NCBI GenBank assembly: GCA_003214175.1
Contig: QCLZ01000003.1
Span: forward strand, 1-24,000
Direction: 5' to 3'
Length of the DNA: 24,000 nt
Source of the DNA: Prochlorococcus sp. AG-418-I20
GTDB lineage: Bacteria > Cyanobacteriota > Cyanobacteriia > PCC-6307 > Cyanobiaceae
Shown here: in pieces, positions 1,030 to 23,589 of the stretch
How positions within the stretch are numbered: the stretch's first letter is position 1
Layout of the letters: the number at the start of each line of letters is the position of its first letter
Translations under genes and position numbers: made by a program
Notes under the pieces: model-generated
What the model saw: the letters and a program-made list of their open reading frames with translations, nothing else
Told to the model about the DNA's origin: nothing
The model's database searches: none

Positions 1030-1116
1030 ATGTCCATTAATACTTTTCTTTTGCTGTTATTAGTTATTGCAAATTACACAAACTTATTTTTAAATTTAAA
1101 AAATAGAAGAGTATGA
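1030..1116 (+). CDS. 28-aa hydrophobic micro-ORF (MSINTFLLLLLVIANYTNLFLNLKNRRV)
   Basis: Starts directly after leader element P1. It is very short and has no homology evidence. Confidence 0.3.
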   Translation: MSINTFLLLLLVIANYTNLFLNLKNRRV

Positions 1117-1166
1117 AACGTTTATTACTTCCAATATCGTTTTCTTTTGTAAAAATTATGTGTTAA
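1113..1166 (+). pseudogene. truncated remnant of a secreted-protein gene (MKRLLLPISFSFVKIMC*)
   Basis: The first 20 nt, ATGAAACGTTTATTACTTCC, closely match the signal-peptide 5' ends at 16347, 18156, 18890 and 19317. The reading frame stops after 17 codons. Confidence 0.45.
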
Positions 1167-1475: not shown

Positions 1476-1563
1476 ATGTTTTATCGACTATCAATCATAA
1501 TTAATTTAGCGGTGCACGAATTAAGCGTTTCATATATTCAGAATAAATGGTTGTTTTTTGGAT

Positions 1564-7248: not shown

Positions 7249-7362
7249 ATGGGATATTTTCAGGAGCTTTGGAATAATCAACCAAATGAAGTTATCGGTG
7301 TAGGCATGTTAATATTCATATTGTTGGGAATTTACATAGCATTACTCAATAGATTTAAGTAG
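7249..7362 (+). CDS. 37-aa single-TM peptide MGYFQELWNNQPNEVIGVGMLIFILLGIYIALLNRFK
   Basis: Paralog of 644-757, and 2 nt upstream of the next ATG (7365). Confidence 0.6.
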   Translation: MGYFQELWNNQPNEVIGVGMLIFILLGIYIALLNRFK

Positions 7363-7364
7363 TA

Positions 7365-7613
7365 ATGGAAAAATTTACCCTTATAAATAAAGATAGATCC
7401 AGGATAAAAGTATTTGAACCATTTGAAGATGTATCGAAGCCTAGTCCTAGTATTGATGCAATGATGATTAGTTATGGATGTGTTTATAAGCGAGCAAGTA
7501 AACCAGTTATGAAAGGAAGCAGAGTTGAAACTATCGAAGCAGCTCGAAAGGAATATAAACAACTACTGGATGAGGGGTGGAAGAAAACAAGTATCTTCAG
7601 GAGCTATTTCTAG
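7365..7613 (+). CDS. hypothetical protein, 82 aa
   Basis: ATG ORF tightly coupled to 7249-7362. Confidence 0.6.
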   Translation: MEKFTLINKDRSRIKVFEPFEDVSKPSPSIDAMMISYGCVYKRASKPVMKGSRVETIEAARKEYKQLLDEGWKKTSIFRSYF

Positions 7614-7643
7614 GCACTAAATACAGCAAAGTACATCCTATGA

Positions 7644-7665
7644 ACTCCCCCTACAGCTCCCCTTT
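7644..7665. repeat. segment-private tandem repeat ACTCCCCCTAC|AGCTCCCCTTT
   Basis: Partner of 3468-3490. It is followed by the palindrome CTCAATTTGAG and the tRNA-flank terminator. Confidence 0.7.
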
Positions 7666-7688
7666 CTCAATTTGAGACAGTAAGCAAT

Positions 7689-7713
7689 AAAAAAGCGAGT
7701 TGGGAGACTCGCT
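7689..7713 (-). terminator. terminator travelling with the tRNA-Pro fragment
   Basis: On the minus strand, directly 3' of fragment c, the stem AGCGAGT/ACTCGCT is followed by a T-run. Confidence 0.65.
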
Positions 7714-7735
7714 AGTATGAATTGGTTTTTAAGAG

Positions 7736-7787
7736 TCGGGGCGACAGGATTCGAACCTGCGACCTAGTGCCCCCAAATCACTAGTTC
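7736..7787 (-). repeat. partial tRNA-Pro 3' segment, copy c (variant, fully symmetric core)
   Basis: TCGGGGCGACAGGATTCGAACCTGCGACCTAGTGC-CCCCAAA-TCACTAGTTC. The loop is altered and the right arm is extended into a 10-bp inverted repeat. Confidence 0.85.
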
Positions 7788-7881
7788 AGAAGACCCTATA
7801 TCTACGATTTGAAGCTATAACAACAGTTATAAGCCCTTTTTTCTTCTAAAACCTTATAAGACTTTCTAATTCTTATTGGAT

Positions 7882-7933: not shown

Positions 7934-8041
7934 GTTGCCACAAACAAATAAAAATGGTGAATGTAGAAAGCCTTTAATTTATTCTTTTTTTTTAGTTTTA
8001 TTTGGGATAAATGTTGCTTGTTCAACGTAATGTGAGATCTA

Positions 8042-8329
8042 TTATTTAGGAAATGGGCAACTTGGATAAAGTTCCAGTGCAATTTCTTTTACATATTCTA
8101 TTTCACTTTTAGATAAGTATTTTTTTTCTGCATTATAAACATATTGCTTTGTATACTTTTTTGCTAACGAATAAGATAAATTATTCTCGTCATGCATCTC
8201 ACAAACTGCAGTAATTAATCCAAATACAAACATTTCCTTTTCAGGTTTTGTTAAGGAAGCAAAACTTGGACTTGTTAATGCAATAGTTGAAATACTAAAT
8301 GATGAAAAAATTAATAAGAATTTTTTCAT
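8042..8329 (-). CDS. secreted hypothetical protein, 95 aa
   Basis: Start moved to the ATG at 8329, giving MKKFLLIFSSFSISTIALTSPSFA as a signal peptide. The ORF-track start at 8401 adds an unlikely extension. Confidence 0.6.
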   Translation of the reverse strand: MKKFLLIFSSFSISTIALTSPSFASLTKPEKEMFVFGLITAVCEMHDENNLSYSLAKKYTKQYVYNAEKKYLSKSEIEYVKEIALELYPSCPFPK

Positions 8330-8504
8330 CAATATTCTTTTAGTAAATTCTAGTACTAGTTTCATATTTAATAGCCATCTGCTAATAAAGATAGCAACCA
8401 ACTATATCGATATATATAAAGGTAGGCTTATATCCTAAAAAATTCAATAAAATTCTATAAACTCTAGGGAAAAACCATAAGAAAACCCCCTAAAAAGGAG
8501 TTCA

Positions 8505-9847: not shown

Positions 9848-9889
9848 TTGACAGTAGATATAAAATTAAGTGAAATTAGGCTGTCTTTT
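9848..9889 (+). promoter_or_regulatory. diverged leader element copy P12 (TTGACAGTAGATA + TAAAAT)
   Basis: 10 of 13 positions of the invariant block are kept and a TANNNT box is present. A GTG start follows at 9890. Confidence 0.4.
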
Positions 9890-10381
9890 GTGAAGAAATT
9901 TTTCCTCCCTTTTCTTGTTGTTCTTGCTTTGCCTTCGTCTGTTAATGCTGGATATTCATCAAGCATTGATTTAATGACTGATGAAACAAAAATTAGGATT
10001 TTTCACAATTCTATTACCAAAGTGTCAAATTCAATAGGTATTCCTGAGACGGCAACAATCTGGATAAGATGCAGTCTTAAAAATGGTAAGACTACAAATC
10101 TAGAAGCATTTATTAAAACTCCTACATATAACTCAGATAATAATAAAGTTGGATTACGTTGGGATTCTGGAGAACCTATAAGAACTTCTTGGAACGAGTC
10201 AACATCGGGTACATCACTATTCAACCGAGATCCAAAAAAATTTATTAACAAGTTATTAGAATCTAATACATTAGTTTTCCAATGGACTCCTTATCAATCC
10301 ATTCCTCAAGCGGTTAAATTTGATTTAATAAAAATGAAGCCAGATATTATTCGAGCTAAAAATGATGGATGTGAATACTAA
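9890..10381 (+). CDS. secreted hypothetical protein, 163 aa (GTG start)
   Basis: Starting at GTG 9890 gives the signal peptide (M)KKFFLPFLVVLALPSSVNA|GY. The ORF-track TTG at 9845 lies inside the leader element. Confidence 0.65.
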   Translation: MKKFFLPFLVVLALPSSVNAGYSSSIDLMTDETKIRIFHNSITKVSNSIGIPETATIWIRCSLKNGKTTNLEAFIKTPTYNSDNNKVGLRWDSGEPIRTSWNESTSGTSLFNRDPKKFINKLLESNTLVFQWTPYQSIPQAVKFDLIKMKPDIIRAKNDGCEY

Positions 10382-10684: not shown

Positions 10685-10709
10685 GCTATGAGCCAACAAG
10701 CAAAAGCAA

Positions 10710-10736
10710 TAAAAAAGCGAGTCTGGGTAACTCGCT
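10710..10736 (-). terminator. terminator travelling with the tRNA-Pro fragment
   Basis: On the minus strand 3' of fragment d, the stem AGCGAG/CTCGCT is followed by a T-run. Confidence 0.6.
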
Positions 10737-10758
10737 AGTACGACTTGGTGTTTAAGAG

Positions 10759-13691: not shown

Positions 13692-15308
13692 TTGAGAATT
13701 GTTGAGATTAAAAGATCTTTAAAGATTATATTTTTAGTCTGCCTTGTTCCAACTGGAATTGTTTTGGCAGATACTTTTACTGGTACAGATATTTCAATTG
13801 AATCGGAACTAAATGGTGGAACAGTTATTGATTTCTCGAATGGCTCAAATGGAACTTCGGGAACATCGTTTCAAACCTATTCTGAAGGTGACGTAACTTT
13901 TTCAAACGAAGGTGGTATTGGTGAGAATAATGGTTCAATAAATATTGATGATTCTAGAAGTGGGTCATCTAATACGACAGGATTTTACTTGCAAAATACT
14001 ACTGATGATTATGGTGTCAGATTTACGAATCCTAGTAAATCTCTGAAGTTTGAATTTACAAACCCAGTTTCAGCTTTTGGATTTAATTTAGGCAATAATG
14101 TAAATATTTGGGATTTAAAAGCTTACGATTCTAGTAACACACTTCTAGAGACTTACAATTTACCCGCATTAGAGTCAACGAACAATAATGGTGAATATTT
14201 TGGTATTTCAAGTGACTCAAATAATATCAGTTATGCAACATTAATTGATCGGCTAAATACTGGGCAGGGGGCAAATGGGAATTGGATTTTTATTGATAAC
14301 TTTACTTATTTAATTTTATTTCGTAATGAGTGGTTACAACCTTTTGCCGCTATGCAAAATGTTGGTTTAACTTCAATAAAAAATAATAAAGATTTAGTGT
14401 TAGCAAAAGCTGGAGAATGCAATGATTATGGATGGGTTATTGATGAAACAGATTTCTGCTTATATAGCACTACTAGTAATTCAATTTCTAACGTAAATGG
14501 TAATAGCAATTATGGTGGATATGATTACGCAAACTTTAATACATCATTAATTATAGAGAAAACTTTTAATGAAGAATGGAAAGCTGGAATTTCTTACGGA
14601 GTTGGCTCGTCTAATTTAGATAATTTTAATTTCTCTGGAACAACTGCTAATTTTCATTCCACAAATACACATTATTCAATTTATGGATTTAAACAAGTTA
14701 GTAAAAAATTTAGTTTAAAAGGGTTGATTGGAGTCTCCGATTTTGATTATGCAGGCAATAGAAATTACCTAAATAAGACCGCTGAATCCATTTACGATGC
14801 TGATGGTTATACAGTAGAAATAGTAGGTGTTTGGGATTTTAATAAATTTATTAAGGAATCTAATACTCTTATCAATGTTAAACCCTCAATAGGAATGGCC
14901 TTTGCGGCTCATAATCAAGATGGATTTAGTGAATCTGGTAGTGGACATTTAGTTACCATCAAATCTAATCGAGCAGAATCTCTTCTTTTAAAAACAGGTT
15001 TAAAAGTTGAAAACCAAATACTAATGGAAGGAGGTAAGTGGATATTGATCCCTTCATTTAATTTGAATTATGAATTTGATGCTCTTGCTAGTAGTAACAA
15101 TAGAAAAATTAGCGGATTTCTTCAAGGGAGCACAGATGAGACTACATTTGTATCATCTAAAACTTTAGGAGAACACAATGTTTCAGCCAACGTTGGTGCT
15201 GATTTCATTTGTACTGAGAATTTAAGTTTTAATCTAAATGCAAAATATGTTTTAACAGATGGAGGTAATCAACATTCTTTTGGTGGAGGGTTCAGATTCG
15301 TATTCTAA
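13692..15308 (+). CDS. autotransporter-like outer-membrane protein (type V beta-barrel C-terminal domain), 538 aa
   Basis: Signal peptide KIIFLVCLVPTGIVLA|DT and a G/N/S/T-rich passenger. The C-terminal ~280 aa show the alternating beta-strand pattern, a P-x-x-G-x-A-x-x-x-x-x-DGFSESG motif, and a terminal GGGFRFVF. The start codon is TTG. Confidence 0.7.
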   Translation: MRIVEIKRSLKIIFLVCLVPTGIVLADTFTGTDISIESELNGGTVIDFSNGSNGTSGTSFQTYSEGDVTFSNEGGIGENNGSINIDDSRSGSSNTTGFYLQNTTDDYGVRFTNPSKSLKFEFTNPVSAFGFNLGNNVNIWDLKAYDSSNTLLETYNLPALESTNNNGEYFGISSDSNNISYATLIDRLNTGQGANGNWIFIDNFTYLILFRNEWLQPFAAMQNVGLTSIKNNKDLVLAKAGECNDYGWVIDETDFCLYSTTSNSISNVNGNSNYGGYDYANFNTSLIIEKTFNEEWKAGISYGVGSSNLDNFNFSGTTANFHSTNTHYSIYGFKQVSKKFSLKGLIGVSDFDYAGNRNYLNKTAESIYDADGYTVEIVGVWDFNKFIKESNTLINVKPSIGMAFAAHNQDGFSESGSGHLVTIKSNRAESLLLKTGLKVENQILMEGGKWILIPSFNLNYEFDALASSNNRKISGFLQGSTDETTFVSSKTLGEHNVSANVGADFICTENLSFNLNAKYVLTDGGNQHSFGGGFRFVF

Positions 15309-15377: not shown

Positions 15378-15401
15378 GATGTAACCGACATAATTTTCAA
15401 T

Positions 15402-15427
15402 AAAAAAGCGAGTCTGGGAAACTCTCT
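15402..15427 (-). terminator. terminator travelling with the tRNA-Pro fragment
   Basis: On the minus strand 3' of fragment f, the stem AGCGAGT/ACTCTCT (1 mismatch) is followed by a T-run. Confidence 0.5.
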
Positions 15428-15449
15428 AGTATGACTTGGTTTTTAAGAG

Positions 15450-15499
15450 TAGGGGCGACAGGATTCGAACCTGCGACCTAGTGCTCCCAAAGCACCCGC
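15450..15499 (-). repeat. partial tRNA-Pro(UGG) 3' segment, copy f (long form)
   Basis: TAGGGGCGACAGGATTCGAACCTGCGACCTAGTGCTCCCAAAGCACCCGC. Identity extends through the whole anticodon stem. Confidence 0.9.
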
Positions 15500-15623
15500 T
15501 ACGCAAAATGCGACAGCCCCCATGAGAAACAAGTGAGGCTATGGCTTATTAGTTGATATTAAATGAAAATTGATGAGTCTTAAAAATTAGCAAGATATAG
15601 CAAGGTGGTGCATAAATAAGCAA

Positions 15624-15697: not shown

Positions 15698-15741
15698 GAT
15701 TGACAGTCGATCTAACATAGAGGGATAAAACCCTTTTTATA
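15698..15741 (+). promoter_or_regulatory. island leader element copy P5 (GATTGACAGTCGATC + TAACAT + AGAGGG-ataaaa-CCCTTT)
   Basis: Canonical copy. The ATG of the lipoprotein gene follows at 15742. Confidence 0.75.
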
Positions 15742-15969
15742 ATGAAAAGAATTTATTTATTTCCTCTTTTTCTTCTACTAATAACAGGCTGTGAATATCT
15801 TTCTTTATCTCAAGCTAAAAAAGCTTGTTATCGATGGGGTCTTAATAGTGATATTGAACGTGGTAATTGGGATTGTAAACTTAACAAATCTAATATGGAA
15901 TACCTATTAATTAATGAATACTCTGACGATGGCATATACGATCCTAAAGTAATAAAAAAATTTAAATAA
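15742..15969 (+). CDS. small lipoprotein, 75 aa
   Basis: MKRIYLFPLFLLLITGC carries a lipobox (LITGC). Confidence 0.7.
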   Translation: MKRIYLFPLFLLLITGCEYLSLSQAKKACYRWGLNSDIERGNWDCKLNKSNMEYLLINEYSDDGIYDPKVIKKFK

Positions 15970-15995
15970 TATAGCTTTTCATTGATATTTATTTC

Positions 15996-16037
15996 TTGAC
16001 AGTCGATCTAACATGGAGGGATAAAACCTTTTTTTTT
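15996..16037 (+). promoter_or_regulatory. island leader element copy P6 (TTGACAGTCGATC + TAACAT + GGAGGG-ataaaa-CC + T-run)
   Basis: The right arm of the hairpin has partly decayed into the T-run. An ATG follows at 16038. Confidence 0.7.
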
Positions 16038-16343
16038 ATGTCTTGCTCTGTTACCTCTGTGTTTACTTTTAAGATTGAAAGTACTTTCGATGAATGGTCT
16101 GCAATATTTGATAGTGCAGAAGCTGATAAAAGGCATTCTGAATTTGAAATTAAGCCTTTATTTAGAGGAGTAAGTAAAGAAGATCCTCAAAAAGTTATTG
16201 TTATTCATCAAGCTCCAGAAGGTAATGTTCAAAAGTTTGTGGAAGCAAACGGTGACTGGATGGCAACCCATAGAGTTGACTTATCAACGATGGAGGAAAC
16301 GTCTTGGACTGCTTCATTAAGAAAAGATAGTTGTTGTGATTAA
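16038..16343 (+). CDS. hypothetical cytoplasmic protein, 101 aa
   Basis: Start moved to the ATG at 16038, because the ORF-track TTG at 15996 is the TTGACA of the leader element. Confidence 0.65.
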   Translation: MSCSVTSVFTFKIESTFDEWSAIFDSAEADKRHSEFEIKPLFRGVSKEDPQKVIVIHQAPEGNVQKFVEANGDWMATHRVDLSTMEETSWTASLRKDSCCD

Positions 16344-16346
16344 CAA

Positions 16347-16859
16347 GTGAAACGCTTACTACTTACACTTCTAGCTGCTATCTCCTTACCTAATCCTATT
16401 AATGCAGAAGAATTACCAAAAAGACTTTATGGTTCATGGCAATTTACTTCAACAGCTGGTGAAGCTGTAATTGGAGAACTCACAATCACTAAAGAGTATG
16501 TAGCGTATGGATCATCTCTTAATGGAGTTTGTAGTGACTCATACAAGGTTAAAAGATTAAAAGATGATAATGACTATCCTAATAATATGGTTGAAGATAC
16601 AAGAGGTTATATCTCCTATAGGACCTATAGATTAATTCTTGATAATCCTGAGAATTGTGTCCATAAAGATGATACGCTCCAAATATCTTTTGAACAGATT
16701 CCAATAGGATCCTTTAAAAATATTTATCCTGATGAACCGAAGTTTATTAATAAAATTGCCTTGGTTACTTATATTGATGGGAGAGTAACTGGTTGGTTTT
16801 CAAATGGATTTAAACTAACGGAATATATTAGAAAACCTTGGTCATGGGGAGAATTATGA
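16347..16859 (+). CDS. secreted hypothetical protein, 170 aa (GTG start)
   Basis: Signal peptide (M)KRLLLTLLAAISLPNPINA|EE, belonging to the conserved signal-peptide family. Confidence 0.7.
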   Translation: MKRLLLTLLAAISLPNPINAEELPKRLYGSWQFTSTAGEAVIGELTITKEYVAYGSSLNGVCSDSYKVKRLKDDNDYPNNMVEDTRGYISYRTYRLILDNPENCVHKDDTLQISFEQIPIGSFKNIYPDEPKFINKIALVTYIDGRVTGWFSNGFKLTEYIRKPWSWGEL

Positions 16860-17788
16860 TCATAAATGAGTATCGTCCACTAAATAATAAGTTTAGACTC
16901 TTCGGATATATAGTTTCCCTGATTGGAATATTTAAAATAACAATTCCTCAAAATCAATGGCTTCTTATTCCAGTCCTTATTCAGAATTTCTACACTCTTA
17001 GAGCTCTGCAAAATGGACCTCATAAAGATATTTTCTCTGAATTCAAAAGAGATATTAGTCCTCTAAGAGATCTTTTAAGAATTCTTATAGTTGGATTAGT
17101 CGGATTTCTATATTTTATGAATGTCGGAGCAGGCTTTGTAGAAATTATTTATTCATTAACGCAAGAAAGATTTACAGTTGGTTTATTATTAACACTATCT
17201 ATGGGAAGCACTCTTTATTTAGTAGGAGTAACCTTTAATCCTGATTTCGGAAGTAATTACAAGCAAAAAAATTCAAATCTAAAAAAAGATAAAAACCTTA
17301 TAGATATTCCAGTTAATTCGGCAAAAAATAATGTAGATTCTTTTACAAATAGGCTTCCAGAAAAAGAAACGATAGAAAGATTAGGAAATATTTTTAACCT
17401 TACAGTTACTGCATCAGAAAAAATCTATCAAGATGCAAAAAAGATTTCAAAGAATAGAGGTAAATCCATTCCTGATTTAGAGGATTTAAATAAAATACTC
17501 TCAGAATCTTCGCTGCAAAGATTAACGTTCAATGCAATGGGTGGTCTCTCAATAGATTATGAATATAAAGAACCTAAGCAATCAAAAAGAAAAGATCTTT
17601 TAAAAGAAAAAGGAGAAATAATAAAAGATTCTAAAAAAATTGTTCCCAAGAAAATTTCTAATTTGAAGGGAAATAATGATCTTTCAAATCTTTCTGGAGA
17701 AATTGAAAAACTTGCTGCATTAAAAGAAAAAGGTATTCTTACTGATGAAGAATTTAGTGCCGCTAAGGCTAAAATTTTAAATTCTTGA
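16856..17788 (+). CDS. multi-pass membrane protein with C-terminal SHOCT domain, 310 aa
   Basis: The ATG overlaps the upstream stop codon (ATGA). The C-terminus LSGEIEKLAALKEKGILTDEEFSAAKAKIL matches the SHOCT pattern. Confidence 0.7.
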   Translation: MIINEYRPLNNKFRLFGYIVSLIGIFKITIPQNQWLLIPVLIQNFYTLRALQNGPHKDIFSEFKRDISPLRDLLRILIVGLVGFLYFMNVGAGFVEIIYSLTQERFTVGLLLTLSMGSTLYLVGVTFNPDFGSNYKQKNSNLKKDKNLIDIPVNSAKNNVDSFTNRLPEKETIERLGNIFNLTVTASEKIYQDAKKISKNRGKSIPDLEDLNKILSESSLQRLTFNAMGGLSIDYEYKEPKQSKRKDLLKEKGEIIKDSKKIVPKKISNLKGNNDLSNLSGEIEKLAALKEKGILTDEEFSAAKAKILNS

Positions 17789-17803
17789 AACTCTGACTAC
17801 CTT

Positions 17804-17848
17804 GATTGACAGTCGATCTAAAATTGAAGGGATAAAACCCTCTTTTTT
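17804..17848 (+). promoter_or_regulatory. island leader element copy P7 (GATTGACAGTCGATC + TAAAAT + GAAGGG-ataaaa-CCCTCT + T-run)
   Basis: Canonical copy. The ATG at 17849 abuts the T-run. Confidence 0.75.
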
Positions 17849-18151
17849 ATGCCATACGATAAAGACGGAGAATATTATAGGAAGGCTGTAGTACCTCAAA
17901 AAAAAGAGGATTCTGTAGATAATTTTATAAAAAAATCAAAAAAGCAAGCTAATATTCTAGCCATTCTAATTTTAGCAGGAATTGCAGGTGGTCTCGGAGC
18001 TATTATTTTCTGGCCTAAGAAAGAACTTCCAAAACCTAATATGAATTTACAAGGAGCAGAAAGATATTATGATCTGTGCCTGCAGTTGCGAAATTATCAA
18101 GGTATATCAAAAGAAGGATGTGAGACTATTCTTGAAAATCCTGATTTATAA
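17849..18151 (+). CDS. single-pass membrane protein, 100 aa
   Basis: ATG ORF with a central TM helix ILAILILAGIAGGLGAIIFW. Confidence 0.65.
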   Translation: MPYDKDGEYYRKAVVPQKKEDSVDNFIKKSKKQANILAILILAGIAGGLGAIIFWPKKELPKPNMNLQGAERYYDLCLQLRNYQGISKEGCETILENPDL

Positions 18152-18155
18152 ACTA

Positions 18156-18446
18156 ATGAAACGCTTACTACTCCCACTACTAGCTGCAATCGTTTTACCC
18201 ACTGCTGTTAATGCTGAAAGTTACGATGCTTCTGTTGCCAAAAATCAATGGCCTAAAATGCAAAAATTGCTCGATAATGCAGAAGGTTTTCTGGATATTG
18301 GAGACATGAATGCAGCCTGTAGCAAATTAAGAGAATATGACCTTTTACTAGGAATGAATTTTGAGGGATTACAAGAGCTCTATCCAAGTACTGATTGGTT
18401 TAAAATAAAGAAGCATTCAAACGAAATAATTAAAGATTTTTGTTAA
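18156..18446 (+). CDS. secreted hypothetical protein, 96 aa
   Basis: The ATG at 18156 gives MKRLLLPLLAAIVLPTAVNA|ES. The ORF-track start at 18069 overlaps the previous gene. Confidence 0.7.
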   Translation: MKRLLLPLLAAIVLPTAVNAESYDASVAKNQWPKMQKLLDNAEGFLDIGDMNAACSKLREYDLLLGMNFEGLQELYPSTDWFKIKKHSNEIIKDFC

Positions 18447-18488
18447 AACAAATTAAACGCATAATACTTGCCCCGCTATATTAATTAC

Positions 18489-18533
18489 GATTGACAGTCG
18501 ATCTAATATAGAGGGATCAAACCCTCTTTTTTT
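18489..18533 (+). promoter_or_regulatory. island leader element copy P8 (GATTGACAGTCGATC + TAATAT + AGAGGG-atcaaa-CCCTCT + T-run)
   Basis: Canonical copy. The ATG at 18534 abuts the T-run. Confidence 0.75.
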
Positions 18534-18893
18534 ATGCGTAAATCATTAGTAACTTTATTAGCTGCATTTACTTTACCCACTGCTGTTAATGCCTCTGTTC
18601 CTTTCCTTTATGTAAATGGTGGAACCATGGGCGATTATGAAAGTGTGAATGAATGCTTAAACATAGCAATGAGAGAAATGAAAATGGCAGGATTTACAAA
18701 AATTGTTAAATCTGGTCTTGACAAAAAAAACAAAAAACAGGCTACTATTATTGCCGATCATTCATGGAGACCAGCCACAATAACTTATAGATGTTTTGAA
18801 GATCTAAAGGTATATTCGTGGGGAGTTTCAGCAATAGTTAATGATGATGCTTACGAAACTTATATTGATATGAATAATGCCTTTGGTAAATGA
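18534..18893 (+). CDS. secreted hypothetical protein, 119 aa
   Basis: Signal peptide MRKSLVTLLAAFTLPTAVNA|SV. Confidence 0.7.
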   Translation: MRKSLVTLLAAFTLPTAVNASVPFLYVNGGTMGDYESVNECLNIAMREMKMAGFTKIVKSGLDKKNKKQATIIADHSWRPATITYRCFEDLKVYSWGVSAIVNDDAYETYIDMNNAFGK

Positions 18894-19264
18894 AACGCTT
18901 ACTAATCCCACTACTAGCTGCCCTCGCTTTACCTACGGCTGTTAATGCTGAAACTTGGGTACAAGCAGCAAGTTTGATGCATGATGATGCTAAACCAGGC
19001 ACACTGGGATATTTTTTATGTAAGGAAAATAATGATTGTGGAATGGGATTGTTTGTTGATGTCAAATCTATAGTTAAAAGAGGTGATTTTGTTTACTTCA
19101 ATTTCGATACAAAACCTTTAAACAAATATGCTGTTCCAAAAGATAGAGAATTTGAAGCTGTAGGGTGGACTGCTGATTGCAAAAAAAAACTATTGGGACC
19201 AAATTTAAAAATGAGGCCGGCTTCAGAAAGGGAAATAAAGTTATTAAAACTTGTTTGTGATTAA
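18890..19264 (+). CDS. secreted hypothetical protein, 124 aa
   Basis: The ATG overlaps the upstream stop codon (ATGA). Signal peptide MKRLLIPLLAALALPTAVNA|ET. Confidence 0.7.
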   Translation: MKRLLIPLLAALALPTAVNAETWVQAASLMHDDAKPGTLGYFLCKENNDCGMGLFVDVKSIVKRGDFVYFNFDTKPLNKYAVPKDREFEAVGWTADCKKKLLGPNLKMRPASEREIKLLKLVCD

Positions 19265-19316
19265 GATTATTTAGTGAAAAAATAATGATATTCCCTGCGA
19301 TAAAGCCACTAGTAAA

Positions 19317-19349
19317 ATGAAACGCTTACTTACACCTCTTGAATTATGA
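19317..19349 (+). pseudogene. truncated signal-peptide remnant (MKRLLTPLEL*)
   Basis: The first 15 nt, ATGAAACGCTTACTT, follow the family 5' end. The frame stops after 10 codons. Confidence 0.45.
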
Positions 19350-19438
19350 ATAACGATTTTTAAAAAGGATTCTTAACTGGTTCAGGTGGATTATTAGGAG
19401 TTCTATCCATACCAGTTGGGATTTATCTCATATATTTT

Positions 19439-19672
19439 TTGATTAAGCTCTTATTCGTCCCAACAACAAACTTGTTATTAAGAAAAACGGAATATTTGAA
19501 TTGGAAAGATTGCCTTAAGGAGACACAAGCAGAAAGAAGTTACCAACCTATTAAAAGGGGGTATAGAGATAATAATATCTCTGCAGTTGTTCAACTACAA
19601 AAGGAGTATTGCGGGAGAAGACCAAATGAATGGAAGTGGCAATTAGAGACATACTACAAACCATCAAAATAA
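19439..19672 (+). CDS. hypothetical protein, 77 aa, possibly 5'-truncated
   Basis: TTG start. The frame stays open upstream through a TM-like stretch (GSGGLLGVLSIPVGIYLIYF) without any start codon. Confidence 0.35.
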   Translation: MIKLLFVPTTNLLLRKTEYLNWKDCLKETQAERSYQPIKRGYRDNNISAVVQLQKEYCGRRPNEWKWQLETYYKPSK

Positions 19673-19760: not shown

Positions 19761-19808
19761 TAGCGATTAAGCCTACTAGGTATATCAAAGCTATACAAAT
19801 AATCGCTA
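19761..19808 (+). repeat. 48-bp perfect direct repeat, copy 1 (flanks the protease cassette)
   Basis: TAGCGATTAAGCCTACTAGGTATATCAAAGCTATACAAATAATCGCTA, identical to 20825-20872. Confidence 0.9.
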
Positions 19809-19822
19809 AATAATAGCTAGAG
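19801..19822. repeat. segment-private tandem repeat AATCGCTAAAT|AATAGCTAGAG
   Basis: Partner of 20865-20886. It is followed by the half-core GACCTAGTGT at 19826-19835. Confidence 0.65.
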
Positions 19823-19933
19823 GTAGACCTAGTGTCTTTAATGGGGTTTTATGTAATTTATGACTTAGTAAAAATGAAAACTATAATTTGATAATATTTT
19901 AAAAAACGAACTAAACTAACTAAAGCTTTTATC

Positions 19934-20827
19934 TTGGTTTTGAAAATCAAAAACTATCTAATATTTTTTTCTCTGATTGGTTTACTTTTGACGTTTAAAA
20001 TTAATTATTTTGGAAAAAATTCAATTTATTTTATGCCTAAAGAGTATAAAACTATAAAAAAATTAGTGGATAAAATAGCATCTAAAAATTACTTGGGCGA
20101 TAAAGAAATCCCTTTTTTTATTGGAAGTGGAAGGTATATGGAAATAAGGGCAAAAGAATTAGGTTTATGTGAAGAGGATGATTGCTGGTATTACAATAAT
20201 TTAAGTCCATATAAGAATTATAAAAATGTTGAGGGAATAAATCTTAATGAGCTTATAAAACAATCATATTTGTTCAATGGAATTGAAGCCTATGCTTGGA
20301 GAGGGATAGTTTGGTTAAGTCAATCTACTTTTCGAACTTATGGAAAAGATAAAAAATTTCTAAACTGTACTATTGGTCATGAATTATCTCATGTGATTTT
20401 TGATGATCATATTGAGCAGAGTATTAAACTATCAAATTCTTTAAAAGAAATAGAGAATCAAAATAAAAAAGATTCAAGCAGTAAAACACAAAAAGAAGTA
20501 AAAGAAAATATAAGACTAAAATTAAGTAGAGAATCTGAAAAGATAGCTGATATTAATGCCGCAAAAATGATTATTAATGCAGGATATCCTAAAGAAACTT
20601 GTATAGATGAATTAATCTTCCTCACTCAATCATCAAAGTTAGATGCTGATACTGAAACTGATTCAACTCATCCAGGTTTTATTGAGCGCATTGCCTCACT
20701 TGAAGAATTCATAGATAAATATGATCTAAATAAAGAGATTACAGAATTTAAGCCTTACAAGTGGACATGGAGTTATGACAGTACCTCTAAATTATTAAAG
20801 TTTAAACCTGAACCTAGCGATAACTAG
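19934..20827 (+). CDS. HExxH zinc metallopeptidase, M48-like, 297 aa
   Basis: N-terminal TM helix, GHELSH, and a downstream ESEKIADINAAKMI motif (E-x-x-AD with third-ligand spacing) as in M48 peptidases. The start codon is TTG. Confidence 0.7.
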   Translation: MVLKIKNYLIFFSLIGLLLTFKINYFGKNSIYFMPKEYKTIKKLVDKIASKNYLGDKEIPFFIGSGRYMEIRAKELGLCEEDDCWYYNNLSPYKNYKNVEGINLNELIKQSYLFNGIEAYAWRGIVWLSQSTFRTYGKDKKFLNCTIGHELSHVIFDDHIEQSIKLSNSLKEIENQNKKDSSSKTQKEVKENIRLKLSRESEKIADINAAKMIINAGYPKETCIDELIFLTQSSKLDADTETDSTHPGFIERIASLEEFIDKYDLNKEITEFKPYKWTWSYDSTSKLLKFKPEPSDN

Positions 20828-20872
20828 CGATTAAGCCTACTAGGTATATCAAAGCTATACAAATAATCGCTA
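20825..20872 (+). repeat. 48-bp perfect direct repeat, copy 2
   Basis: Identical to 19761-19808. It begins at the stop codon of the protease gene. Confidence 0.9.
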
Positions 20873-20886
20873 TTTAATCGCTATTT
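20865..20886. repeat. segment-private tandem repeat AATCGCTATTT x2
   Basis: Perfect 11-bp tandem and partner of 19801-19822. It is followed by the tRNA flank and fragment g. Confidence 0.8.
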
Positions 20887-20958
20887 GAGTTTTTAAGACA
20901 AATGAGAAATAAAAAAGGCAACCTTGGGATGGCTTCCTATGACTTGGTTTTGATTGAG

Positions 20959-21008
20959 TCGGGGCGACAGGATTCGAACCTGCGACCTAGTGCTCCCAAA
21001 GCACCCGC
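20959..21008 (-). repeat. partial tRNA-Pro(UGG) 3' segment, copy g (long form)
   Basis: TCGGGGCGACAGGATTCGAACCTGCGACCTAGTGCTCCCAAAGCACCCGC. Confidence 0.9.
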
Positions 21009-21092
21009 AAGATTAAAACTATAATTGAGACTTAAAGCTTTATCAGGCTTTTAGAGAAAAAAGTTTGGACTTATTCGGACTTATATGTTCGA

Positions 21093-23289: not shown

Positions 23290-23493
23290 AATTAATACTA
23301 TTTATTTATTAAATAATAAATAAATATTAAACGTTAGCAAATAAAATTTTCTCAAGATTCACTTCTAAATGTCGAAAAAAACTGTTTACAAATAAACAAA
23401 AGATTATTGCAGTAATCTTAAATGCTTTTGAAATTGCAATAATTAGCCTTTTTTCGGGCGACAGACCCTCCAAAGTTATCCAAAGATATACAA

Positions 23494-23514
23494 ATCCTCG
23501 CCCATTCCTCGCCC
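23494..23514. repeat. segment-private tandem repeat ATCCTCGCCC|ATTCCTCGCCC
   Basis: Partner of 22597-22618. It is preceded by the shared CAAAGTTATCCAAAGATATACAA context. Confidence 0.75.
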
Positions 23515-23541
23515 GCAGAGATTTTAAGACAAATGAGAAAT

Positions 23542-23566
23542 AAAAAAGCGAGTTGGGAGACTCGCT
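23542..23566 (-). terminator. terminator travelling with the tRNA-Pro fragment
   Basis: On the minus strand 3' of fragment i, a perfect stem AGCGAGT/ACTCGCT is followed by a T-run. Confidence 0.65.
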
Positions 23567-23589
23567 ACTATGACTTGGTTTTTAAATGG

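Follow-up and report, generated by a model that had tools for sequence, protein, structure and literature searches.

What ties together a run of small genes whose products begin alike and then have nothing in common? The question is raised by positions 15698 to 19349 of a stretch of 24,000 nucleotides (nt) from Prochlorococcus sp. AG-418-I20 (contig QCLZ01000003.1, positions 1 to 24,000; here called the window), in which four genes, named below by the position of their first base, begin with a Sec-type signal peptide of consensus MKRLLLPLLAALALPTAVNA. The individual peptides are MKRLLLTLLAAISLPNPINA for 16347, MKRLLLPLLAAIVLPTAVNA for 18156, MRKSLVTLLAAFTLPTAVNA for 18534, and MKRLLIPLLAALALPTAVNA for 18890, just as an earlier annotation made from the letters alone (the sequence-only reading) had written them. 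That reading also placed the conservation at the DNA level and proposed that a shared 5' module permits mature-domain swapping, an idea that is supported by the codons, homology breakpoints, and unrelated domains described here. The copies at 18155-18222 and 18889-18956 are 90% identical as DNA (repeat family D5), and identity to the 18155 copy is 76% for the 16346 copy and 62% for the 18533 copy. With up to two mismatches, the 13-mer that starts the module, ATGAAACGCTTAC, occurs 7 times in the window, compared to 0.58 expected. A minus-strand gene at 1564-1953, which had been listed with the others, has only its first 11 nt in common with them, so we rejected it as a member of the family.

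The module is 60 nt long, ATGAAACGCTTACTACTCCCACTACTAGCTGCCCTCGCTTTACCTACTGCTGTTAATGCT, and is predicted to encode a classical Sec type I (signal peptidase I) signal peptide in which VNA precedes the cleavage site. The features that indicate this, read directly from the sequence, are MKR, the hydrophobic core LLLPLLAALALP, and TAVNA followed by E; by eye there is neither a lipobox L-x-x-C at the cleavage site nor an RR in the N-region of the module signal.

Beyond the signal peptide, the proteins are unrelated. No pair of mature parts in the window was similar by BLASTP at E<1e-3, and hhalign of six families gave a probability below 4% for every pair save two subfamilies of the 18890 group. 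AlphaFold2 modelled the 18156 protein as an all-alpha bundle (predicted local distance difference test score [pLDDT] of 87.5) and the 18890 protein as a six-stranded alpha/beta fold (pLDDT of 85.3), and in related loci Pfam placed PDZ, MORN-repeat, TPR, SHOCT, and SdiA-regulated propeller domains behind the same signal. BLASTP, hhalign, fold classes, and Pfam thus all agree with the earlier judgment that the mature parts are not similar. Across genomes and metagenomes together, 194 mature parts fell into 44 BLASTP clusters. A Foldseek search of the PDB with the two modelled window proteins (18156 and 18890) returned nothing below E = 0.3; most mature parts had no match in Pfam or NCBIfam, and no toxin or immunity family of the kind that marks polymorphic toxin or orphan-cassette systems was among the matches there.

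The signal, in turn, is conserved as a nucleotide sequence. For codon usage we took one gene per mature-domain cluster, which gave 35 clusters. The codon for Arg3 is CGC in 26 of the 35 families, compared to a background use of 2%; CTA encodes Leu5, Leu8, and Leu9 in 25, 24, and 30 families, respectively (background, 12%), and CTC encodes Leu6 and Leu12 in 22 and 19 families (background, 4%). The same codons were found in an independent metagenome sample (CGC in 84, CTA in 91 to 95, and CTC in 72 of 122 genes). When aligned at the nucleotide level, as the sequence-only reading had suggested, the module is thus identical well above what codon bias and amino acid conservation would give, and because these rare codons are shared, all copies of the module descend from one ancestral sequence. 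By base count, the canonical module has a guanine-plus-cytosine (GC) content of about 47% in a genome of 31% GC. Its RNA shows no structure (z = 0.34), and it contains no hairpin or inverted repeat.

We also compared divergence in the signal and in the mature part. In homologous pairs with mature parts less than 60% identical, the mature part, with its synonymous sites saturated, differs at 51-56% of the codons for the same residue, compared to 23% in the signal; between unrelated families, 27% of signal codons differ. Among close orthologues, however, the synonymous difference in the signal and the mature part was 4.4% versus 1.7%, and 19% versus 11%. The signal of close orthologues is therefore not slower than the mature part, so that the module is not simply frozen and its divergence is bounded across families.

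The borders of the module are sharp. Column conservation rises steeply at the ATG, which often has a TAA before it, and drops at +60. The BLASTN match over the module was examined in 2,314 gene pairs that each combine two families; it starts between -20 and +9 in approximately 97% and ends between +55 and +69 in approximately 95%.

To place the module more widely, we searched 185,579 species genomes for the pattern PLLAAxALPTAVNA with every codon allowed and obtained 77 loci, all in single-cell or isolate assemblies of Prochlorococcus, two of which are labelled only as uncultured Synechococcaceae. The codon-degenerate pattern was found on at least 120 contigs of marine metagenomes. It had no match in IMG/VR or in 50,697 phage genomes, and a phage origin of the module was rejected on these grounds. 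A protein search with the 18890 product gave 626 matches at E<=10; among the 120 matches listed, most align only over the signal of about 23 residues, at 87-96% identity, in proteins of 68-140 residues. The module belongs to high-light, low-GC Prochlorococcus lineages generally and not to one locus. In 25 of the 35 family representatives, the gene starts between -4 and +10 nt from the stop of an upstream open reading frame (ORF), often as TAAATG. Full-text searches of the literature found no description of the peptide sequence or of Prochlorococcus signal-peptide cassettes, and the arrangement appears to be undescribed for cyanobacteria.

If module copies recombine, DNA homology between strains should break at the module, and the sequence-only reading had pointed to the junction of signal and mature part as the place to look. 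Such breaks were found in at least seven independent contexts, where upstream DNA with 75-96% identity gives way to unrelated sequence between +59 and +70, and the comparison of strains provides the decisive evidence of this analysis. A block of leader element, DUF3764 gene, and signal is 91-93% identical in four related loci (L026, L070, L033, and L054), and its identity stops at +59/+60, where three unrelated sequences take over, one for a PDZ protein, one for a different protein, and one for a stub of 27 residues. L054 and L026 become homologous again only at a tRNA-Pro fragment. Likewise, L004 and L050 have in common a block of leader, cupredoxin-like gene, and signal (95% identity between -487 and +66), with a PDZ protein after it in one locus and a propeller in the other. 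Five further breakpoints at the module edge were found (L008/L032, L037/L065, L001/L058, L024/L077, and L048/L054). The mirror image is seen between L004 and L017, which are 99.9% identical from -2 to +828 behind unrelated upstream DNA, a break at the ATG. Pairs within one family are bimodal: in 269 pairs homology reaches 300 nt or more upstream, in 366 it begins between -20 and +30, and none lie between. The left ends of shared blocks coincide with leader elements. Since shared blocks end at leader elements, at module edges, and at the tRNA-Pro fragment, all three are joints of the mosaic.

Signals are also replaced within families. We searched for such swaps with mature parts only as the query, so that the signal was unbiased. 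In the 18534 family, most members carry MRKSLVTLLAAFTLPTAVNA, two have the full canonical signal, and one more has all of it but the final residue; several others have mosaic signals that are canonical-like in the first half only. In the 18156 family, member P0124 has a different signal. Pairs that share only their upstream context differ at 2.6% of positions over the module's first third and at 7.7% over its middle third, compared to 16% in both for unrelated pairs, a gradient that gives modest support to crossovers within the module, as the pairs are few and not independent. The same junctions are found in independent cells: cupredoxin-like gene with PDZ in many loci, cupredoxin-like gene with propeller in L020, L050, and L052, and DUF3764 followed by the PDZ protein in both L026 and L070.

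Two very short genes in the window, at 1113 and 19317, had been described as signal-peptide stubs left over from recombination. Both exist, and the second can be traced. Positions 19270-19330 match L017 and L022, where an intact signal-peptide gene comes next, and positions 19310-19491 match L015, where a degenerate signal remnant without an ATG lies ahead of a 179-residue membrane-protein gene. Because its left and right flanks match different loci, the 19317 stub is a scar where blocks of different ancestry were joined. Elsewhere, in the combined genome and metagenome set, 9 complete ORFs with the module encode fewer than 25 mature residues.

Two observations on the mature parts stand beside these results. 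In L004, L022, L041, L072, and L076, PDZ, MORN, and other proteins share a second short module within their first 25 or so mature residues, directly after the signal (pattern x-V/I-D/S-P-x-V-x3-C-x2-A-x-D-Y/F-x-G-C-V), a motif that suggests module shuffling past the signal peptide. In addition, a 189-residue signal-bearing PDZ gene in L004 and some 30 other loci differs at only about 4% of synonymous codons across GTDB species representatives and is found behind at least five different upstream genes, and this combination suggests recent spread.

We consider it probable that the module is a dispersed homology patch of single origin at which recombination reassorts operon halves. The process we propose is homologous recombination, presumably of RecA type, to which the module lends itself as a near-identical repeat in dispersed copies; for RecA, a few tens of base pairs are enough. 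An exchange between copies that stand on different genes would join the upstream part of one (leader, first gene, and signal) to the downstream part of another (mature domain and following genes), with crossovers either within a genome or with incoming DNA. Leader elements and tRNA-Pro fragments would supply the other crossover. The island would then be a patchwork of segments joined at short repeats, and the truncated stubs would be scars of the joins. The net effect would be a combinatorial, and perhaps adaptive, turnover of small proteins that are predicted to be exported and cleaved, in keeping with the "diversifying exoproteome" role that the sequence-only reading had suggested.

Several points weigh against this explanation. 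The synonymous divergence of the module levels off at about 25% with no saturation, which nucleotide-level selection could also produce. There is no homogenisation within genomes, as modules of different families in the same genome are no more alike than others (permutation p = 0.97, with low power); concerted evolution by ongoing intragenomic gene conversion, which we had considered, is thus not supported by this low-power test. Four-gamete incompatibilities in the signal window of the PDZ family (9/21) are found equally across the 5' half of the gene and so are non-specific. Recombination is read indirectly, from sequence comparison, and export is predicted from sequence features. Finally, the comparison genomes are mostly single-cell assemblies, in which mis-joins at repeats are conceivable, yet the junctions recur and 60 nt is less than a read length.

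Selection on the mRNA or DNA could by itself hold the nucleotide sequence of the module, with the edge breakpoints as a by-product of a conserved repeat. Such selection might act because pausing at rare codons helps Sec targeting, because an unstructured start region rich in pyrimidines allows re-initiation past the upstream stop, or because the copies share a small-RNA target. This account would fit the retention of particular rare codons in 35 families, the plateau of synonymous divergence at 23-27% next to saturated mature parts, the lack of within-genome homogenisation, the unstructured module RNA, and the position of most representatives next to an upstream stop. However, the module of close orthologues is not slower at synonymous sites, whole families, such as that of 18534, stably keep AT-rich copies built from common codons, and neither the acquisition of the module by unrelated domains nor the replacement events are explained. 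We therefore regard selection as an unlikely sole cause, although it may contribute to the constancy of the module. The mosaic junctions could instead be artefacts of single-cell and metagenome data that collapse at a 60-nt repeat, a concern raised by the make-up of the comparison loci, most of which come from single-cell amplified genomes or are short contigs of metagenomes. However, independent cells show the same junctions, the repeat is shorter than the sequencing read, and the window itself has the module on four different genes, so that we see hardly any chance that this is the explanation.

A single fast-evolving paralogue family of the conotoxin type, in which the signal is conserved and the mature part has diverged past recognition, would account for families that share their first mature residues (ETW or ESY), for the many small, cysteine-containing proteins, and for the common short post-signal Cys motif of the PDZ and MORN proteins. 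It is contradicted by mature parts without a shared scaffold: established unrelated domains (PDZ, MORN, TPR, propeller, and SHOCT) stand behind the same signal, the two modelled window proteins are in different fold classes, and hhalign stays below 4% between families. Moreover, DNA homology breaks off at +60 beside upstream DNA that is 93-95% identical, and members of one family show ordinary rates of evolution in the mature part and a signal that is no better conserved. We rejected this candidate as very improbable. A dedicated site-specific recombinase (of the integron, shufflon, or Mycoplasma vsa type) or a tycheposon-type integrase that moves mature-domain cassettes at the module would suit the very sharp junctions at both edges and the setting in an island shaped by tRNA-targeting integrative elements. 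However, a scan of 20 window ORFs gave no recombinase domain, the module has neither hairpin nor inverted repeat, the breaks occur at either edge, the mosaic signals indicate variable crossover positions, and viral and mobile-element contigs do not carry the module. An enzyme of this kind is thus quite improbable.

A bolder version of homologous recombination between module copies would make the module a selected genetic adaptor, a portable stop-start-export cassette with its exact sequence kept because it is the crossover site. We think this doubtful. Were it true, wild Prochlorococcus could equip any reading frame, whether freshly acquired or newly arisen, with an export signal and reshuffle operon halves, and would have a population-level system to invent and exchange exported proteins in an otherwise minimal genome. 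In a weaker version, the shared sequence may double as a regulatory handle for the whole exported set.

The features of the locus are collected in Table 1.

Table 1. Positions in the window of the signal-module genes and stubs, their neighbours, the leader elements, and the tRNA-Pro fragments
Feature	Position	Strand	Source or repeat family
tRNA-Pro(UGG) 3' fragments	1189, 3295, 7735, 8554, 10758, 13422, 15449, 20958, 22422, 23589	minus-strand sense	repeat search
Degenerate tRNA-Pro(UGG)-like copy, near full-length; left bound of the cassette run	15450..15520	-	Rfam, ARAGORN
Next tRNA-Pro 3' fragment; right bound of the cassette run	20958..21022	-	repeat family D1
Leader element 1: core TTGACAGTCGATC, -10-like TAACAT, hairpin AGAGGG/CCCT, T-run, then ATG	15700..15741	+	repeat family D2
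75-residue predicted lipoprotein, MKRIYLFPLFLLLITG|C lipobox (LITGC), without the shared signal module	15742..15969	+	
Leader element 2	15996..16037	+	
DUF3764 protein, first in operon 2	16038..16343	+	
170-residue predicted secreted protein; diverged module copy at 16347-16406, GTG start	16347..16859	+	D5
310-residue membrane protein, C-terminal SHOCT domain	16856..17788	+	
Leader element 3	17806..17848	+	
100-residue protein with one hydrophobic segment, first in operon 3	17849..18151	+	
96-residue predicted secreted protein; canonical module at 18156-18215; mature part predicted all-alpha bundle	18156..18446	+	
Leader element 4, hairpin also flagged terminator-like	18491..18533	+	
119-residue predicted secreted protein; AT-rich module variant (MRKSLVTLLAAFTLPTAVNA) at 18534-18593	18534..18893	+	
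124-residue predicted secreted protein; canonical module at 18890-18949; mature part predicted alpha/beta	18890..19264	+	
Signal-module stub, 10 codons (MKRLLTPLEL*)	19317..19349	+	
Frameshifted, shortened remnant of a membrane-protein gene, intact (179 residues) in L015	19346..19672	+	
163-residue predicted secreted protein, distant relative of the module (MKKFFLPFLVVLALPSSVNA; 60% nt identity)	9890..10381	+	D5, D15
Signal-module stub, 17 codons (MKRLLLPISFSFVKIMC*), 22 nt ahead of a tRNA-Pro fragment	1113..1166	+	
Possible third stub (MKRLIRAPLN*), 30 nt past the end of the minus-strand gene 1564-1953	1501..1533	-	

The four leader elements do head four small operons, as the sequence-only reading had stated, with cores of sequence TTGACAGTCGATC at 15700, 15996, 17806, and 18491, up to two bases beyond the starts it gave. 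The first operon is the lipoprotein gene alone; the second comprises the DUF3764 gene, the secreted-protein gene 16347, and the SHOCT membrane-protein gene, whose start overlaps the stop of 16347 (ATGA); the third, the membrane-protein gene 17849 and the secreted-protein gene 18156; and the fourth, the secreted-protein genes 18534 and 18890, the latter with a start that overlaps the stop of the former, and then the stub at 19317. The start codons at 15742, 16038, 17849, and 18534 lie 42-43 nt past the TTGACA of each leader. In the wider set, genes coupled to an upstream stop usually carry the canonical, GC-richer module, and several genes directly after a leader use the AT-rich version. One more neighbourhood may be of interest: on the metagenome contig L095, which has a tRNA-Pro nearby, a relative of 18890 (8001-8354) lies 150 nt downstream of a gene for a 163-residue signal peptidase I (Peptidase_S26; 7362-7853), and this island-borne signal peptidase next to a module-bearing gene may be no coincidence.

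The leader is not peculiar to the cassette run. The exact core occurs 9 times in the window, always on the plus strand, compared to an expectation of 0.23 for two-mismatch matches, and with up to two mismatches there are about 210 copies in the 589 kb of related loci and window. It is a generic, promoter-like leader repeat of the island and also a junction point. Copies elsewhere in the window are at 983, 8619, 8956, 21134, and 22662, as well as at 1441-1494, where two degenerate cores face each other around a single hairpin, and at 9848, where a degenerate leader precedes the gene at 9890-10381. Within the element, the order is an imperfect palindrome, a TAnnnT box, a hairpin, a T-run, and a start codon 42-46 nt past TTGACA. 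The palindrome, GATTGAC-A-GTCGATC, resembles a candidate binding site for a dimeric regulator, and its pairing was also chosen by RNAalifold. The TAnnnT box is present in 129 of 152 unique copies. From single-sequence folds, the hairpin is of two sequence types, GAGGG-ATAAAA-CCCTC or GGGGC-AATTA-GCTCC, with the T-run after it; covariation support for it was not obtained, as the MAFFT alignment mis-registers both types and RNAalifold found the core palindrome only. A sigma-70 scan did not pair the TTGACA with a -10 box at 16-18 nt, and the 17 matches of the leader 16-mer in IMG/VR are about the number estimated for chance. We suggest, with low confidence, that the leader is a putative compact expression unit with an operator overlapping a -10-only promoter, in which the hairpin and T-run might stop incoming transcripts and the U-rich tract might help initiation.

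The window belongs to a genomic island of Prochlorococcus that was built up beside tRNA-Pro. Its GC content is about 31% throughout, and its genes are typical Prochlorococcus island cargo: an RRM RNA-binding protein, DUF1330, PAP/fibrillin, an autotransporter, an M48 peptidase, a DnaJ/Ycf66 protein, and, recognised by eye, a protein of the high-light-inducible type. Ten copies of a fragment of about 48 nt lie on the minus strand, and their reverse complement ends like tRNA-Pro(UGG) (repeat family D1); two of them, at 15449 and 20958, enclose the cassette run. The copy at 15450-15520 scores 38.6 bits as a tRNA in Rfam but receives no ARAGORN call, and we therefore consider it degenerate; in the related loci L026, L054, and L095, an intact tRNA-Pro(UGG) is at the corresponding position. 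The ten fragments look like a pile of old integration sites, and dispersed partial tRNA copies in Prochlorococcus islands have been interpreted as traces of successive tRNA-targeting integrations (10.1101/2020.12.28.424599).

Other repeats and genes were seen in the island. A 50-nt repeat just before most tRNA fragments (272-321, 7683-7732, 10706-10755, 15397-15446, 20905-20954, and 23536-23585) reads, on the minus strand, as a GC hairpin followed by a T-run and is probably the downstream terminator of tRNA-Pro, duplicated along with the attachment site. The short tandem motif ATTTGTCGGC, twice repeated with variants TCCGC and TTGGC (10663, 10893, 13329, 13557, 13568, 15356, and 22596), recurs close to cassette borders. 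A 91-nt repeat present three times (67-100% identical; 19763-19853, 20827-20917, and 23458-23548) flanks the M48 peptidase gene and the last tRNA fragment. Directly ahead of the cassette run, the 538-residue product of positions 13692-15308 includes an autotransporter beta-domain (Pfam E = 2e-28). A small membrane protein is present as two paralogues of 37 residues, at 644-757 on the minus strand and 7249-7362 on the plus strand, which follow the pattern M.F...WNNQP..V.G.G..IF.LLGIYI.LL, and further pairs of small paralogous genes are dispersed in the island (for example, 11830/12139).

Prochlorococcus is the most abundant photosynthetic organism, with a streamlined genome from which most classical gene-exchange tools are absent, and has a huge pangenome concentrated in islands. 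Short dispersed repeats that act as joints (the signal module, the promoter-like leader, and tRNA fragments) would provide a concrete fine-scale mechanism for island diversification, in which unrelated protein domains would turn into exported proteins through one ready-made signal. The module is also a Prochlorococcus-specific marker sequence, by which such sets of exported proteins can be pulled from any marine metagenome and their turnover followed.

Among known systems, the setting recalls tycheposons, mobile elements with tRNA genes as their insertion sites, given an island beside a tRNA, ten tRNA-Pro 3' fragments in the window, and an intact tRNA-Pro(UGG) in related loci. Neither a tyrosine recombinase nor a tycheposon replication module was found in the ORFs scanned (20 window ORFs; small ORFs were not all included), and we therefore take the window to hold remnants and not an intact tycheposon. 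The signal module is a second, finer layer of mosaicism within this tRNA-flanked island; the paper on tycheposons mentions neither signal peptides nor promoters (10.1101/2020.12.28.424599). Integron cassettes differ in that an attC-type inverted repeat is not present in the module and no integrase domain was found in the scanned ORFs. In variable lipoprotein loci of Mycoplasma (M. pulmonis vsa), one signal-encoding 5' end is joined to alternative mature cassettes by DNA recombination, with a site-specific invertase and silent cassettes in one locus and phase variation in a single cell line. In contrast, we saw no recombinase or silent cassette array here, and the variation lies between strains. 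The prochlorosin precursors (ProcA) of Prochlorococcus MIT9313 are encoded by many genes with a highly conserved N-terminal leader and hypervariable C-terminal parts, but that leader, of Nif11 type, is the sequence by which a lanthipeptide synthetase recognises its substrate, and the cores are short peptides, whereas here a Sec signal stands before folded domains such as PDZ or TPR.

Phytoplasma SVM proteins also have a conserved signal on diverse small secreted proteins in regions rich in mobile elements (PF12113 SVM_signal; PMC6638208). Their hosts, however, are obligate parasites of plants as well as insects, the proteins are host-targeting effectors, and they have no sequence relation to the window proteins; PF12113 had no match at E<=0.1 in any of 10 window proteins. 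The closest analogue is the erp family (ospE/ospF/elp) on cp32 prophages of Borrelia burgdorferi, in which a leader module of single origin stands on many independent, still-recombining mature parts and the members also have promoter and operator sequences in common (PMC10016077). As judged by its rare codons and by Pfam and folds, the Prochlorococcus module is likewise of single origin on independent mature parts. The units differ, since that of erp combines promoter, operator, lipoprotein leader, and sorting residues at one allelic site on prophage plasmids, whereas that of Prochlorococcus is a 60-nt Sec type I signal only, without a lipobox and usually on the second gene of an operon, with the promoter-like leader as a separate repeat. 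Unlike erp, the Prochlorococcus module is absent from phage collections, its conservation begins at the ATG, and it is carried on the chromosome of a free-living, genome-streamlined phototroph.

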